Under the pieces are notes generated by a model. That model was given only the letters and a program-made list of their open reading frames with translations. It ran no database searches and was not told the DNA's origin. From assembly GCA_964188305.1 (NCBI GenBank), contig OZ076886.1: 64,000 nt of DNA; one strand, 5' to 3'. Made by a program: the position numbers and the translations under genes. Below are positions 1 through 63,109 of this stretch, one piece after another (the first letter of the stretch is position 1; each line of letters begins with the position of its first letter). Source of the DNA: Podarcis bocagei (taxonomy: Eukaryota).

Positions 1-132
1 GTTTGCATTTTGTTTGTTTTATTTATAAATTCAATTTATTGGTTGCTTTTTTTATCAAAGTGACAGTATATGCATGGGTTCCTGTGCTGGCCAGTTGCGG
101 GTGGGCTTGCTGAGGAAAAATTGTGTGGTTAG

Positions 133-332
133 CAAGGCTGGCCCAAGACATTTTGGCACCTGAAGTGGCACCCAAAATGGCTCCCCTTCTCCCTGCCAGG
201 GAAGAAGGGGTGTGGGAAGATCTACATCAGGAACAAGGGGGAAAGAAATATCAACATGGGTATTTGCTGCCCCAGTGGATCCTGCCGCCCGAAACAATCA
301 CCTCACATTGCCTCATGGGTGGGCCTGCCCTG
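133..332. mobile_element. hAT-type MITE (family C), copy 1
   Basis: Imperfect TIRs caaggctggccc / gggcctgccctg. Perfect 8-bp TSD gtggttag at 125-132 and 333-340. Related copies at ~41870-42035 and 50073-50271. Confidence 0.75.
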
Positions 333-1256
333 GTGGTTAGCTCTTCTTTTGAATTCTGTTCTTATAAAACCATGCTTGTACACATGGCTTGGGCGTGTGA
401 CTTCTGGCTACGTTGAAGCCAAGTGACAAGTCCTGCTAGACAAGTCCCTGGAAAAGCACCACTTCCCAGAGTGCTCTGCCCAGACCCTAGCATGCCATCT
501 GTGTGACAAGCACTTCCGTAAGCAAGAGCATGGCCTCTTCACCCCTTTCCTGGCTGGCCCACATTTTCTCCAGCCCTCAGATCAGACACCGGAATGTATA
601 ATCAACGTGAGAATCTCTCAAGGAGGAGGAATGTGAGTCCAAGGCAAAAAGTCCCTTTTTGCTTCCTGCTCCACCCTCTTAACAACACCCATGCTAGAGA
701 GAAATATAGTTTGGGTTCAGCACTGTAACATCGTTTTGGTTTCCCTAGTAGTATAATATACTCCATCATATTGCCTTGCCTCACCCTGTACTCCTGGTTC
801 AGTGATGCCTTTTGTTTAAGAATTAAAATAATCACATATCATCTTCCCTTTTGCCAGCACCTCTGTAAAAAAATGTATTTATCTCTCAAGAGGAACCTTT
901 GTCTGAAAAGGAAATACTTCCTGTTCCTGCCACATCAGCCTTTCTGCAAGGCCTCTGATAAGCCATGACCAATAATGCTGAGCATATAGTTAGCAAACAG
1001 CTGATCCCAGCTGCATACATGGGAACTAAACATAGAGCAGGCAGGAGGCTCTGGCGTTCCAAGAAAAGGATATGCCAACCACTTGGAGCAGCCTTTTTTG
1101 CTTTCCTGCAGTGCCACCTGCTGCTCTGGCTATGCCAGAGCATGAAACAACGCCATAGTTCATTGACTTTTATCCCTGGGAAGTCTCATTCTCTGAAGTT
1201 CATGACTCTACAAGGCGTGACCATGCAGATACTTGGGTGCGTCTCAGTCTTTAAAA

Positions 1257-1379
1257 TAAGGTTACCAGATTTTTTTCAATGAATCCAGGGACACTTTTCA
1301 ACTTCAGTAGATTTTGTATGGGGACTGATTTGTAAATCCGGGGACTGTCCCCGGGAAACAGGGATGTCTGATAACCTTA
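1257..1379. mobile_element. small hAT-type MITE
   Basis: TIRs taaggttaccaga / tctgataacctta. Perfect 8-bp TSD ctttaaaa at 1249-1256 and 1380-1387. Confidence 0.75.
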
Positions 1380-3254
1380 CTTTAAAAACATTGTGCAAGT
1401 AGCAGCTGTGATTGAGAGAACCCAGATTACAACAGTGGTGCTGGTATGCTTAGCCCTTTCCCATTGCACTATTGTGCTCCCTGCCCCCAAAGAAGATAAA
1501 TGATCCTCCTAAAGTTGCTGTTTACTTGAGCAGGAAAAACATATTTGTACACCCCCCCTCCCTAAACTGGGGGCAAATAGCAGACCTAGAGGTCTGATTT
1601 TCATTGAAAAAAGAGTTAACCCCACACCACTGTCCTGAATCCAGATCCAACATATGCAGTTTTAAAATATGGAGAGTCATTCACACATCTCCATTATCAC
1701 ATCTAGATTCATCTGGAGATATGAGACCAAGCCTACTGTTAAGGCTTTATGCAATTATAAGTGGGAATATAGGTATGTGTACCAATTCACCCAGTATAAA
1801 GCAGATGCAGGTAGCAAAACCACTTCCCACGTGTGGCCTGCTAACAACAGCCATGTCCCATATTTATGCTTATGGCTTATCCACATGTCCTTTTTGCCCT
1901 GTGCTTTCCAGGCACAGGTCTGCACTTTCCCAGTGTGTGGCCACACTTTTTTCTCTCTTTTTTGCCATGGAAAACCCAATCTTTACCATTGTATTTGAGC
2001 AAATGGCAATTTGAGTTTTCTGCAGATTGCCATTTGTTCTGATTCAGTGGTAAAGAGCAGGTTTTCATGGGGAAAAGGGAGAATAAGTGATACTGACCCA
2101 GAAAGCCTGGATATGTGCCTAGAAATGCTAAGCAAGGTAAGTGTGGATAAGCCCTAAGTTGCATCTCATGGCCAGGGCTCAGACATGGAGTTCAGTGCTT
2201 TGCTTAACTGTCCAGTGAATTTACTGGACAGGTTTTTGCAGAGAATTATGGCCAAATGAGAGGAAACAAATGTGTGGTCCAATCCTAGTAGTGATGGATC
2301 AATTCAAAGGACAATTGACTCATCCATTTCCTGCACTGCACAGTTCCAAGTCATGGAGTGTAATAATTGCTCTTTAATCCTACGAAGAAGGATACTGTAG
2401 TGTAGACAACATGATCCTCAGGATCTCTTCCAACTCTACCATCCTAGAATTCTATGATTCTAATTACAAGTGTAGCCTGAGAATGCTTGGGGAAATCTCT
2501 TTCTCTTTCTCCAAGAGCTCCAAATCAGCCTGCATATTGGTTTGTGTGTATTCGTGTGCTGATGCTCGAGTGTTGCAGTGAGGGCAGGGAAAGAAACATG
2601 TTTCCTAGGCAATTGTGCAAAGCCCCCTTCCATTCCACTTGCGCTGGCACTTGTGCCATGATTGGCTGCTGGTACTTGCTACATGTCCGTAGGCATGAGG
2701 ATGCAGTGGATCCACAGGCGGCAGAGACATGATTGGCAGCAGTGTCACCAGCCTTATGGACAGTGGGTGCCACTGAGAAGTGGTTGCTGTGACACCATTC
2801 CTTTGCTGCACTTCTCCACAAGTTCTCTTTCCAACCAGAAGTGGAGCCAGAACTTATAGGCAAGGCGGGTTTCCAGAAGCACAGGAGTTATATGGGTGGG
2901 ATACCTGATTTGACCTGAAGATGGGAAATACCTTGAGATCTGTGCTGTGGGTGGGCTGTGACTAGAATAAATTGATGGCTATGGTGCACAGCTGTTGCAA
3001 GGAACTCCTGGCACACTCCAATTGCAATATGGCAATAACAAAAATACCAGACCGTACTGCAGATTGATGATGTGGTAAGCCCCACCTTTCAGCCCCACCT
3101 TCACCTGCAAGGTGCACTTAAGTCAGAAAATCCAAGGACTGAGAATGAGCACACACAGCTTTGGCGCTGTGTAAATCCCCCCCCCCCAACAGTGGAACAC
3201 AAGTGTGCAATTGTGGCAACACAAGTGTGCAATTGTGGCAATGATCTCGGAGCT

Positions 3255-3855
3255 GCAGTCAATCACTAACTGAACACGAGTCAGCAGAGGGATGCAGCTG
3301 CAAAAATGGCTAATGTGCTTTTAGGCTGAATTGATAGATCCATGGTTCCAAGTCATGGAGTGTAATAATTGCTCTTTAATCCTACGAAGAAGGATACTGT
3401 AGTGTAGACAAATTGGAACAGGTTCAGAGGAGGGTAATGGAGATGGTGAGGAATATGGAAAACAAGTCCTTTGAGAGGAGGTTGAAAGAATTTGGTATGG
3501 AGAAGAGCAAGCGTAGGGAGGACATGCTAGCACTCTTCAAATACCCAAAGGGCTGCCACATACAGGAGGGCAAAGTCTTGTTCTCTCCTGTTCCAGAAGG
3601 AATTGACTAGATCTAATTGGCTTAAGTTACAAGAAGGTAGATTTCAGCTGAACATTAGGAGACACATATTGATGATAATGAGGGGTTTAATAGCGGGCTC
3701 GATTACCTAGAGGGGTGAGGGCTCTTCTTCACTTGGAGGTCTTTAAGCAGGAGCTGGACAAAGATGCTCTAGCATGATTTTCTACCTCAATCAGAGATAG
3801 AGACTAAAGGTCTACTTTACAAAGGCCCTTCTAACTCTTTATCATTCTATGATGC
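3255..3855 (+). mobile_element. degraded CR1 LINE 3' fragment
   Basis: CR1-like RT remnant (ORF 3413-3610 EQVQRRVMEMVRNMENKSFERRLKEFG...) followed by a CR1 tail (ccttctaactct...attctatgat). Boundaries approximate. Confidence 0.75.
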
Positions 3856-9552: not shown

Positions 9553-9606
9553 CAGCAAGATTTGGTAGAACATAGGAATCTCTATAGAGCCGCTTATTTA
9601 GAATTA

Positions 9607-9816
9607 CAGTGGTACCTCGGGTTAAGAACTTAATTCGTTTTGGAGGTCCATTCTTAACCTGAAACAGTTCTTAACCTGAGGTACCACTTTAGCTAATGTG
9701 GCCTCCCACTGCCGCCGCACGATTTCTGTTCTCCTGAAGCAAAGTTCTTAACCCAAGGTACTATTTCTGGGTTAGCGGAGTCTAACCTGAAGCATCTGTA
9801 ACCCGAGGTACCATTG
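9607..9816. mobile_element. Tc1/mariner (Tigger/pogo-like) MITE family A, copy 1
   Basis: TIRs cagtggtacctcgggtta / taacccgaggtaccattg flanked by TA. Same family at 21844-22523 and 40876-41110. Confidence 0.85.
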
Positions 9817-10653
9817 TATATGTCCTCTTTTTGCTAGTCAGTAAGAAGGGGCATGAGAATACTGAAGTCACACCACCTGAATGTGGAAGTCCTATCCCCC
9901 TCTGGTTTAGTTCTTGAGACTTCCAAGTACTTACGTCTTGTAAATGAAAACTGGGTGCCTCCAGTTGTTCAGTTCTCAACTCAGAACCAAATTCTGTGTA
10001 ATGTTATGACAGTACAGTAGATTATACCTACCCCATAGTTTTCAATTAGCCTACTTCACAGTATGCTATAAACACACTGCCTAATTAATATCTTCAGCCA
10101 GACGATACTCAGCCTTTAATGCAAAATTATTGCTACCTGAGGTTGTGTTGCTGAAGGTTTTGGCTGCCTAAGTTGTCCTGGCATTTATTTCACTCTAAAG
10201 ACAGTGAATATTAAAACCATCACTGTCCATTCTTAGTTGCCACCCTAGCTTTTTCAGCTATACATGCCATTCTCCTAAAAGCTTTTTTATTATACAGGTA
10301 TATACATCCCCACACTAGCCATCTAAATGCATAATTTGTGTGAAATGAAAGTAAATCAACCAAACTGTTGTGCGAGTCTTAAATGTAGAACGTTTTATAG
10401 TGGAAGTGGCTCAAGCATGAAAGAGCTACAACATAATGCTAATCAAAAGAGATTTTAAGAGCTTTGTACTCTCTGGCTCTTTGGCAATGAATCTGGGTTC
10501 CTTTCATCCAGAGAAACAGGTGTTTCTTAATCATTTGGTAACTTCAGCAGACAGAAGCTGTATAAAGTTAGAATTTCTAAGAACTGCTCGTTAAAGGCCT
10601 TGTTAAAAAAGGAAACAAACCCTAAACCTTAGAATTACAGCAAATGTATATTC

Positions 10654-21557: not shown

Positions 21558-21707
<150 letters not shown>

Positions 21708-22029
21708 TGAGAATCCCTTCCTGGGGGTTAAACATGGGAGCTGATTAACTGTAAGTTTTGAAGGAAGGGATCCTGGCATATGGCATATTGCAAATCCAAG
21801 TGTATGGAGGTGGCTTTATTCTTACCTCATTACTTTCACAGTACAGTGGTACCTTGGGTTAAGTACTTAATTCGTTCCGGAGGTCCGTTCTTAACCTGAA
21901 ACTGTTCTTAACCTGAAGACCACTTTAGCTAATGGGGCCTCCTGCTGCCGCTGCACCGCCAGAGCACGATTTCTGTTCTTATCCTGAAGCAAAGTTCTTA
22001 ACCCGAGGTACTATTTCTGGGTTAGCAGA

Positions 22030-22471
22030 ATAAAAAAAAATCCTTCCTGTAGCACCTTAAAGACCGACTAAGTTAGTTCTTGGTATAAGCTTGGTATAAG
22101 ATAAAAACAATGGAGAGACCTGGTCTGAACAGAGACATTGGATTCTTATCTCATTATACATGACTAAGCCATTTCTCACCTTCTCACCCCTTGCCTTTTC
22201 CTGTAAGACCTATTACAGTCGTTAAGAGTCGTCAACAGGCTCATCTCAGCTATCTGCCAATCTCCCATTCCCACCACCCTTCTGAGTAATACCCCTCCCC
22301 ACCTTCTCACTATATAGAAGGATCTGGCAACTTCTGTTTCAGTGTATCTGAAGAAGTGTGCATGCACACGAAAGCTTATACCAAGAACTAACTTAGTCGG
22401 TCTTTAAGGTGCTACAGGAAGGATTTTTTTTATTTTGACTATGGCAGACCAACACGGCTACCTATCTGTAA
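22030..22471 (+). mobile_element. Penelope-like retroelement (PLE) 3' fragment with inverted terminal segment
   Basis: 22101-22163 translates IKTMERPGLNRDIGFLSHYT*, typical of the PLE GIY-YIG endonuclease C-terminus. ~63-bp inverted repeat at 22029-22092 / 22372-22434. 13-bp TSD ctgggttagcaga at 22017-22029 and 22472-22484. Confidence 0.8.
22344..22381 (+). ncRNA. minimal type I hammerhead ribozyme motif (PLE-associated)
   Basis: gtat-CTGAAGA-a-[gtgtgcatgcacac stem II]-GAAA-gc-TT-atac. Stem I is gtat/atac, the CUGANGA and GAAA cores are present, and stem III is the palindrome AGCT. Confidence 0.7.
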
Positions 22472-22681
22472 CTGGGTTAGCAGAGTCTGTAACCTGAAGC
22501 GTATGTAACTCGAGGTACCACTGTACTCATATTCTGCTCATAGTGGAGTCTGGAACAGGTAGTGGTGGTTCTTGGATTATACAAGAATATGTAGTTTGTT
22601 TACATCATTTCTGCATTTTTATTCTTGGGAGAGGTATATAGAATAATTGAATATTGCTTTCTTATCCTCATTCTTACATAG

Positions 22682-22759
22682 GCAGAGTATGAAGTAACCC
22701 CTGATGAAAAACTAAAAGAGTGTGGTCAGCTCCTGATTGAGACGTATTTGACCCCTAAG
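22682..22759 (+). CDS. GRK6: GRK6 coding exon 4 (AEYEVTPDEKLKECGQLLIETYLTPK)
   Basis: acatag| ... AAG|gtgaga; 78 nt. Confidence 0.95.
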
Positions 22760-40700: not shown

Positions 40701-40875
40701 ACAGCAGATGTGCTGGAGAAGAGCAGTGTACACTCTTCAGAAAATTGTGGCGGGGAGGGGGGAAATGACAGGCTATTATTGAGGGAATAGCCTAGTAATT
40801 TTTTTTTTTACCTTCCCCTCTTTTTAAGGCACTGAATGGAGTAAGTTTGATAGAGTATCAATTTATTATTGTGTA

Positions 40876-41110
40876 CAGTAGTACCTCGGGTTAAGTACTT
40901 AATTCGTTCTGGAGGTCCGTTCTTAACCTGAAACTGTTCTTAACCTGAAGCACCACTTTAGCTAATGGGGGCCTCCTGCTGCCCCCGGAGCACGATTTCT
41001 ATTCTCATCCTGAAGCAAAGTTCTTAACCCGAGGTACTATTTCTGGGTTCGCGGAGTCTGTAACCTGAAGTGTATGTAACCTGAAGCGTATGTAACCTGA
41101 GGTACCACTG
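40876..41110. mobile_element. MITE family A, copy 3
   Basis: TIRs cagtagtacctcgggtta / taacctgaggtaccactg with TA flanks. Confidence 0.85.
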
Positions 41111-41869
41111 TATTAAAATTAGGGCTGGCTTAACTTTCCTTAAAACCCTAATGCCTTAAAATTCAATAAATAGTATGGATAGAAGAAAGCATCCCTGCTG
41201 CTTGTGAAGCACTTAACCCGGAGGTTTCTGAACATCTCAGATTCACATAAAATACTTAAATAGTAAAAATATAAAAGGATATACTCTGGAATATGCAAAT
41301 TAGAAAACCCAAATCAAGCTGGTTTAAAAAGTGTGCCATTTGTTTCTACGGCTCAAAGGCCTTCCTAAGAAAGACGGTATCTCTGGAGATTTGAATAGTT
41401 AAAGAGACAAGAGGGATGCATATTTAAGATCAGGGATTCCTTCAACTACTATGGGACCCAGACCCTTTGATTTGGGACTTGAACCAGAAGACACAGACAC
41501 CCAGGGCAAATATTACAAAATATATTCAGCCTTCTCTCTGTTGACAACAGCTATTGGGAACAGTCACAGTTTGCACTAGTGAAAACTTTTCAGAGGCAGC
41601 CCTATGTAGAACACATTTCAGTAACCTAATCCAGAGATTATTATGGCATGTATCACGGTGGCTAAATTGTAACTGCCCTGTTTGTGCCAGTACAGCAGGC
41701 AGCAAGCTTACTCTTGGAAGCCTGAGCTGACCTTGAATAGGGTAAGCATCTAATCAATGTCAGATCAATTACTCACAGCCAGTCTTTCTTTGAGCTGAGC
41801 TTTGATTTCTTAGCCCTACCATCAGGGATGTGTGGGAATCTGTTGCTCAACCACAAGGGGAATCCCCAT

Positions 41870-61642: not shown

Positions 61643-62688
61643 GTGAGTGTGTGGGCAGTACTGTGGCTGCATGAAAGGGGGCACATGCCCACTTGGTAGT
61701 CACAGGCTTAGATTGCTGGACAGGGGTAGGAGGCTGTACAATACACCCAATTTAACCAAAAGGTTTCCTCCCCTCTACTTTGCAGTTGCAACTGGTGGGA
61801 AGCCAAGTCAAGCCGTAGGCTTTTGTGTTCAAGGGGAGGGCAGTGTTTGCAGTCAGGGTCTAAGCTCTACACCCCTTCATTGGACCACCAGTGGCTTGTG
61901 CTCGTTAGCTGGGGAGGGGCTTAGAGCAGGTAGGGTGGGTTCTGCAAAATAGCACTTGTCTGTCCCCTCCTACAATCAATGGCATTCTCTGTCTGTTTGC
62001 AGGGAGCGAGCTCCTGTTGGAAGTGCTGTTGGCCCTGCAAAGCCCCGAGCCAGCAATGGGAAGAAGTTGGGCTGGGTGCTGGTGTTACTGGTCGTGTTAC
62101 CCCAAGTATCCAAGAACTCAGGAGTTTGAAGAAGAGAGCACAGGCCGTGCCCATGAGCCTTCCCAGCACTCTCCTTTCCTTCCTTGGGCTCCTTTAGGAG
62201 CCAGAACTCCACCCTCTCCGTGAAAGGCCCAAGCCTGCACCCCAGTCTCCGGCCAACCTCTTCTATGGCTGCAGTTGTGGAGCACCTCTGGGAGGCCGCG
62301 TAACTCACAAGGGGCTGAGCTGCTGCAGACCCTGCTTCCACTGCCTTGACCGAAGCAGGGCCCTGTTGGTGGTGGCCCCTGGATTGTACTGCGGCTGAAA
62401 GAGAGCACCCTGCACAATCTTTGGGGAAAAGGCAAAACTGGACGTACAAGGAGAGCAGAGGGGAAGCTTGTGATCCCATCAACATGACTAGGCAGCAAGG
62501 GAGGAAGCAGAGCAGGCAAAGGCACCCGCAGAACTCAGCCTAGTCCCTGCTTCTTTGCAGAAGACCCAAAAGTGGGGGAAAGAGAGAAAGAGTCTCCTGC
62601 CCACCCCCACCCCCAAAGCTGGAACTGAATAAACTCCTTGGCTTCAAAGCTCCTAGGGCGAAACCTCTGCCAGTCCTCCGGAGCGAAG

Positions 62689-63019
62689 ATGGTGATGTCC
62701 CACGGCACCTACACCTTCCTCACCTGCTTTGCCGGCTTCTGGCTGATCTGGGGGCTCATTGTGTTGCTATGTTGCTTCTGCAGCTACCTGCGGCGGCGCA
62801 TGAAGCGGCGGCAGGAGGAGCGGCTGCGAGAGCAGCACCTGCGCACCCTGGAGATGGAGCCCCTCCACTACGAGGGCTATGGGGGCCCTGCCTATGGGGG
62901 CTCCGGCTATGGGGGCGGGTACATCAGGAACCCACCGGGCATCGCGGTACCTCACCGACTCCGGATCGAGCCCCATCGCCCTCACCTCCCACCCCCGAGG
63001 CCGTGGAGCTGCAGGCATG
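62689..63019 (+). CDS. PRR7: PRR7 first coding exon ([49 protein letters not shown]...PPRPWSCRH)
   Basis: Recognisable PRR7 N-terminus: TM helix, CCxC palmitoylation motif, basic juxtamembrane stretch. Good Kozak context aagATGg; donor G|gtaagg. The exon probably starts at acceptor 62003 (alternative 62561). Confidence 0.95.
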
Positions 63020-63109
63020 GTAAGGGCACCCGAAGGGGACTGAGCCCACTCCTGGTGCAGAATACAGTCGCGTTTGGGAGGAGCGCTGCTTCTGCAGGTG
63101 GGTAGCTGG

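Follow-up and report, generated by a model that had tools for sequence, protein, structure and literature searches.

The window, a stretch of 64,000 nucleotides from Podarcis bocagei, contains part of the GRK6 gene on the plus strand. Exon 3 (21580–21692) and exon 4 (22682–22759) both possess AG/GT ends and delimit intron 3 (21693–22681). The best PDB match for exon 3 was GRK6. When the exons were compared with solved structures, GRK6 scored ahead of GRK5 in the first test (4.4e-15 vs. 1.2e-10) and ahead of GRK4 in the second (2.7e-38 vs. 1.4e-27). A frame at positions 62629–63105 appears to resemble PRR7, the usual neighbor of GRK6. A hammerhead ribozyme motif had been noticed in the intron from the letters alone, and its placement on the sense strand was confirmed, with 300 nt separating it from exon 4. 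A literature search that paired GRK6 with hammerhead yielded no relevant paper.

Intron 3 contains a MITE (21844–22523), an older non-autonomous DNA transposon bounded by terminal inverted repeats, which is flanked by TA at 21842–21843 and 22524–22525, and which is presumably of the Tc1/mariner type in view of the TA duplication. The MITE is split by a 5′-truncated copy of a Penelope-like element (PLE; 22030–22472) with a 13-bp target-site duplication on the plus strand. The left copy of the duplication is at 22017–22029 and the right copy is at 22472–22484, the first base of the latter being shared with the end of the element. Two other copies of the MITE in the window (9605–9818 and 40873–41120; 85–92% identity) are both without the PLE insertion, and the joint expected of an empty site, 22016 directly to 22472, was present in other MITE copies in all four DNA runs examined. 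At the GRK6 locus the MITE was present in all four runs, with contigs that break inside it.

The PLE copy consists of two arms of opposite orientation. The left arm (22030–22092, minus strand) is an inverted, 5′-truncated piece of the element's pseudo-LTR (pLTR) that has no tail. It is the reverse complement of 22372–22433, identical at 60 of 60 positions in BLAST, and takes in the cut site together with the ribozyme's 3′ half. A junction filler (22093–22103) follows, most of which is the second copy in a tandemly duplicated 11-nt sequence (22079–22089/22090–22100), and the match to natural element sequence ends at 22104. The direct arm (22104–22472, plus strand) opens with the last 19 codons of the element's ORF (22104–22163), the only ones retained in the window, and the encoded peptide also closes the ORFs of longer copies that carry GIY-YIG and RVT_1 domains. 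The remainder is the pLTR with its tail (22164–22472), that is, the 3′ UTR of one unit and the start of the next. The tail (22434–22472) occupies ~39 nt between two preferred 3′ ends and holds the start codon of the next unit's ORF at 22441–22443, as read from a tandem array of the family. The endonuclease C-terminus, the target duplication and the inverted arm complementary to the cleavage site had been overlooked in the sequence-only reading of the motif.

The motif (22344–22381, plus strand) is a minimal type I hammerhead of a U17 subfamily, and upon re-reading its letters proved to be exactly those reported earlier. Helix I is formed by gtat and atac (22344–22347/22378–22381) with four Watson-Crick pairs, and the core comprises CUGAAGA (22348–22354) and GAAA (22370–22373) with an extra A at 22355. 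There is no helix III, which is reduced as first suggested to the self-complementary A-G-C-U at 22373–22376. U16.1 and U17 precede the predicted cut, which falls after U17 (position 22377). Helix II had been described as a 14-bp palindrome: the sequence indeed is palindromic, but it is 14 nt long and folds as a 5-bp helix with a 4-nt loop. In the motif taken alone, helices I and II are predicted to form with probabilities of ~0.82 and ~0.99, respectively.

The earlier assignment to the PLE type is sustained by comparison with the minimal hammerheads (min-HHR) that PMC4209133 describes in the pLTRs of metazoan PLEs. Features in common are the type I arrangement with a CUGANGA core and GAAA accompanied by U16.1 and H17, a helix I of 4 bp (4–5 bp in the class), an unpaired nucleotide before helix II, a G10.1–C11.1 pair, the lack of helix III with palindromic positions 15.2–16.2, and a pLTR location. 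The min-HHR there also are mostly single copies from truncated elements, occur in pairs on opposite strands, and are reported in turtles and snakes (PMC4209133). Helix II differs, since the Schistosoma min-HHR has 7–8 bp in this account whereas the present motif has the short helix described above. The sequence at 22344–22381 is a real motif and a further PLE hammerhead of known kind, not a feature specific to GRK6. The same motif may already stand in the alignments that accompany PMC4209133.

The converse reading, that a chance look-alike is present and no ribozyme, was weighed against these features. Matches to the bare core pattern numbered five in the window with 6.89 expected, and hence were not above the chance level. 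No compensatory changes were found within the PLE family: a search of the genome for the motif with one helix II pair changed gave no matches, and three variants were present in the loci examined, the family being very uniform. An Rfam scan revealed no hammerhead family at E ≤ 10, and hence no fit to an Rfam covariance model. Rfam hammerhead models expect helix III, and this null result was judged to be uninformative for a motif without that helix. Against a chance origin, the full structural descriptor produced one match in the window and none in 200 simulated 64-kb sequences, the motif is situated in the pLTR, which is the usual site in PLEs, and the hallmarks given in PMC4209133 (the extra nucleotide between 9 and 10.1, G10.1–C11.1 and the palindromic 15.2–16.2) are in place. 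A chance resemblance consequently has next to no probability.

Exact copies and a one-base variant taken together, the motif is present ~9,700 times in the genome. The exact 38-mer occurs 1,726 times (837 + 889) and a one-base variant with C17 occurs 7,948 times (3,974 + 3,974), with no occurrence of either in reversed controls, and a looser core pattern produced 13,093 matches compared to a single match for the reversed control. The window copy belongs to the U17 subfamily, whereas most copies of the family possess C17. A U17 ribozyme would be expected to cut more slowly than a C17 ribozyme. Decay as the source of U17 was rejected as the U is present in 1,726 copies and in tandem units; instead, it is a trait of the subfamily because tandem units with intact frames carry the 38-mer. 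GUU appears among the active hammerhead sites in PMC3138052, in a list that gives no ranking. The density of the family is uneven, with 45 pieces in 600 kb near the start of C1 and five in 400 kb of C6.

The tandem units form an array on C3 (82878700–82893600) that comprises 3,010-bp units and an inverted block, with six hammerhead motifs and four uninterrupted frames of 921 codons. The 38-mer in the array is identical to that in the window, and neighboring units have common differences from the window copy. A non-LTR retrozyme, which is characterized by a non-coding tandem unit, was rejected since the 3,010-bp unit is protein-coding. Longer family copies have a single ORF that specifies a reverse transcriptase followed by a C-terminal GIY-YIG endonuclease: RVT_1 was detected at 8e-13 (two of three proteins above the cut-off) and GIY-YIG at 3.8e-06 (two of two proteins). 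The protein has DKG and YIDD motifs and a CX4CxxC linker ahead of the endonuclease, the sole match to the CX2-5CxxC pattern, located 40 residues before the GIY-YIG core. This linker marks Neptune or Nematis elements and is absent from Penelope and Poseidon elements, according to PMC8557442, and assignment to either of the latter two was rejected as the linker zinc-finger motif is present. The family probably belongs with elements of Neptune type, a placement made from the linker motif and the type of host, as Nematis also has the motif.

Descriptions of Neptune-clade, endonuclease-bearing PLEs in PMC8557442 and PMC3846280 match the family in the order of reverse transcriptase and GIY-YIG domain, in the DKG and linker motifs, and in the architecture of copies with partial pLTR tandems, an inverted 5′-truncated copy, a one-ended tail of 30–40 bp and a short target duplication. 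The pLTRs of these and rotifer elements likewise include a TATA box with an initiator-like site and the first codons of the ORF. The 13-bp target duplication is longer than the 8–10 bp of the rotifer examples presented in PMC3846280. The family also resembles PAc (Poseidon_Ac) of Anolis carolinensis, a squamate PLE with a pLTR hammerhead, in which two internal sites at which reverse transcription starts define the tail and copies derive from uncut RNA (PMC11167929). Measured from the start of helix II, the distal end is 117 nt away in the GRK6 copy and 111–118 nt away in PAc. Two differences are the CX4CxxC linker, which Penelope and Poseidon elements are without, and the long ORF, which starts 63 nt after the cut site here but at helix II in the published account of PAc. 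A second, different PLE was observed at another genomic locus (positions 1–3537) with an 834-codon frame, DKG and YVDD motifs, a GIY-YIG-like domain and a 1,045-bp perfect inverted copy. It has no CX2-5CxxC linker and so is Poseidon-like, and the structural descriptor revealed no hammerhead of another type at that locus.

A search with the direct arm retrieved 1,315 candidates. Of these, 40 were scored, and all 40 matched along the full length with 98–100% identity. The pLTR at 22164–22472 has 99% identity to the other full-length matches listed, among which the nearest unlinked copy differs at two of 363 positions. The PLE copy in GRK6 intron 3 appears from this divergence to be very young. 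The best 30 loci, including the GRK6 copy, were surveyed for their ends, with some 5′ ends falling beyond the flank examined: 12 have an adjacent inverted 5′ piece, six of which cover the cut site, and 11 of the 30 have duplications of at least 10 bp. Amniote hammerheads of the RECK type, as outlined in PMC6155905, also are type I motifs in a host intron, but they are conserved across amniote groups and were proposed to be domesticated, whereas a minimal motif in a recent, 99%-identical insertion is present here. A domesticated intronic hammerhead of this type was rejected given the two differences in 363 positions from an unlinked copy and the 1,726 identical motifs.

If cut RNA were the usual template for insertion, then copies would start at 22378. 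The ends of all family pieces were mapped in 1.2 Mb. Of this, 600 kb of C1 were chosen for their dense complete motifs, which introduces a bias toward uncut copies, whereas the other 600 kb, from C6 and C9, were chosen blind. Two of 58 pieces were dropped as they reached <20 nt past the cut, leaving 56. Ends placed by BLAST may be off by a few bases, and in inverted pairs they are further blurred by the palindrome. The pieces run through the cut by at least 6 nt in 47 of 56 cases and start within 3 nt of it in one; the corresponding values in the blind set are 10 and zero of 13. Both arms of the GRK6 copy also span the cut site. The copied RNA was likely mostly uncut, since 47 pieces run through the cut and one starts there. 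However, cut RNA might fail to integrate, in which case the ends reflect only RNA that was copied successfully.

The starts of the pieces accumulate at the 5′ edge of the ribozyme. Nineteen of 56 lie at 22337–22346 and a further 15 at 22347–22360, giving 34 together, and four and two, respectively, of the 13 pieces in the blind set lie in these intervals. A putative core promoter (22311–22345, plus strand) with a TATA-like box at 22311–22318 and an initiator-like A at 22341, at a spacing of –30, is located here, and a comparable arrangement was described in a rotifer pLTR (PMC3846280). The accumulation could also be due to a splice acceptor at 22342 or to a reverse transcriptase that stalls on reaching the ribozyme, but run-off at the 5′ end of a transcript is the likely cause and is preferred because the TATA/initiator-like pair stands just ahead of the starts. 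The 3′ ends are bimodal, at 22430–22442 in 22 of 56 pieces and at 22463–22472 in 26. Head-to-head stub pairs on C1 and C9 combine one tailed and one untailed arm in 11 of 12 cases, as does the GRK6 copy, from which we infer one start site of reverse transcription per target strand. In at least two head-to-head pairs the junction of the arms is the 14-nt palindrome of helix II, a sequence that may serve in DNA joining besides RNA folding.

The arrangement at GRK6 can be accommodated in the following scheme. The element endonuclease would make a staggered cut with the two nicks 13 bp apart, as suggested by the ends of the copy and the description of PAc in PMC11167929. Uncut element RNA would then be reverse-transcribed from two internal start sites, each used for one target strand, to give a long direct arm that reaches 22472 and a short inverted arm that reaches the equivalent of 22433, and the arms would be joined through an 11-nt slip. 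During transcription of GRK6 the antisense arm would be made first and is predicted to form a 60-bp helix with 22372–22431; helix I and the core therefore are predicted not to assemble, and splicing would remove the intron along with the hairpin that it contains. Within the 3-kb tandem units that are its native setting, the ribozyme instead would cut at a slow rate, either as a dimer or aided by the protein of the element.

The predicted energetics fit this scheme. The cost of imposing helices I and II while the core stays unpaired, in equilibrium predictions, is 1.4 kcal/mol for the motif alone, 4.4 for the direct arm and 3.4 for a tandem unit, and rises to 17.9 kcal/mol in the whole insertion or the intron. 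For RNAs that end within the region, the predicted cost is 8.8 kcal/mol with a 3′ end at 22382 and 17.8 with one at 22390. Nucleotides 22376–22381 are predicted to pair with the upstream arm with p ~0.999 in the intron, in which the predicted probability of helix I is ~2e-12, and the duplex of the inverted and direct arms is predicted at –103.7 kcal/mol. In the best predicted dimer of the motif (–31.2 kcal/mol), it is the 14-nt palindrome of helix II that pairs and not the positions of helix III. A partner ribozyme in cis is lacking, as the structural descriptor found one match and no second hammerhead motif in the 64-kb window.

The proposal that the motif is a working self-cleaving element of every GRK6 pre-mRNA fares poorly with a ribozyme that is predicted to be sequestered, has no partner in the window and has ~9,700 sibling copies. 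In assays reported in PMC4209133, cleavage could not be detected for a single min-HHR and was weak for dimers. In the data described in PMC11167929, the anole PLE ribozyme cut only with its protein and was not needed for insertion, and RNA-seq revealed no ends at its cut. Cleavage of GRK6 pre-mRNA through a dimer in trans or with the help of the protein, with a reduction in exon 3–4 splicing or transcript level, nevertheless could be argued from the intact catalytic core on the sense strand, from the identical 38-mer in uninterrupted tandem units, from the activity of the anole ribozyme in the presence of its protein, and from conserved intronic hammerheads in amniote genes such as RECK (PMC6155905). 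As related second-hand in PMC2995048, splicing was blocked by a fast HDV ribozyme but went ahead in an intron that a hammerhead had cut. Intronic hammerheads can be under selection, since non-LTR retrozymes are reported to be depleted from Xenopus introns (bioRxiv 10.64898/2026.07.22.740005). Set against this are the predicted pairing over the cut site, the absence of a cis partner, the one piece in 56 that starts at the cut, and the youth of the copy, which is unlike the conserved amniote motifs. Moreover, counting from the start of helix II, the anole protein needed the first 172 nt (PMC11167929) and the GRK6 copy stops at 117, by analogy across clades. Cutting of GRK6 pre-mRNA thus is very improbable. 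Pairing between the arms could be undone by helicases or A-to-I editing, and a transcript from the putative pLTR promoter at 22341 would lack the antisense arm.

The insertion might affect GRK6 without catalysis by any of three routes. First, the 60-bp hairpin is nested in the inverted ends of the MITE, which could lead to editing or to faster or altered splicing, and the intron folds much better than shuffled sequences (z –9.2). Second, the pLTR promoter might fire 340 nt before exon 4; the TATA/initiator-like pair and the accumulation of copy starts favor this route, as does the activation of cryptic starts by Penelope sequences in a reporter (PMC2377424). Third, the acceptor-like site that ends at 22342 could produce a cryptic exon that contains a stop. 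An intron in Penelope of D. virilis ends at helix I (PMC4209133), and in the window a donor-like site, a branch-point-like site and an acceptor-like end 2 nt before helix I delimit 22204–22342. These ends resemble consensus sites, but a pLTR intron here was not adopted: the candidate donor joined to the acceptor had no match in the genome, and the stubs start without donor-side sequence ahead of the acceptor. As PLEs retain introns, the absence of joined copies does not by itself dispose of such an intron. Thousands of similar copies also are tolerated genome-wide, and on this evidence a non-catalytic effect on GRK6 is quite unlikely.

The interpretation that best accommodates these observations, and that very probably is correct, is that a young, 5′-truncated PLE copy inserted in a MITE of GRK6 intron 3 carries the motif as its terminal-repeat hammerhead, and that the motif is a passenger, likely inert because the inverted arm is predicted to mask the cut site by base pairing. 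On these folding predictions an effect on GRK6 is unlikely, and the copy would be an ordinary recent insertion of little consequence for the gene. The PLE family, on the other hand, is a good test set for the role of hammerheads in PLEs, as it combines youth and abundance (the 13,093 core matches) with tandem units that are uninterrupted.

A broader and distinctly unlikely extension is that the ribozyme of the family acts as a protein-gated switch in thousands of host introns. The element protein would activate cutting of sense copies, surviving copies like that in GRK6 would be silenced by their own inverted arm, and the stubs of ~100–130 nt would be strong-stop-like run-off products from the pLTR promoter, whose transcript would start with the ribozyme. 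If so, a transposon protein would control cleavage of host pre-mRNA genome-wide, and self-silenced copies would be enriched among sense intronic insertions. A minor observation is that an ATG in helix II opens a frame of nine codons (22362–22391) that spans the cut site.
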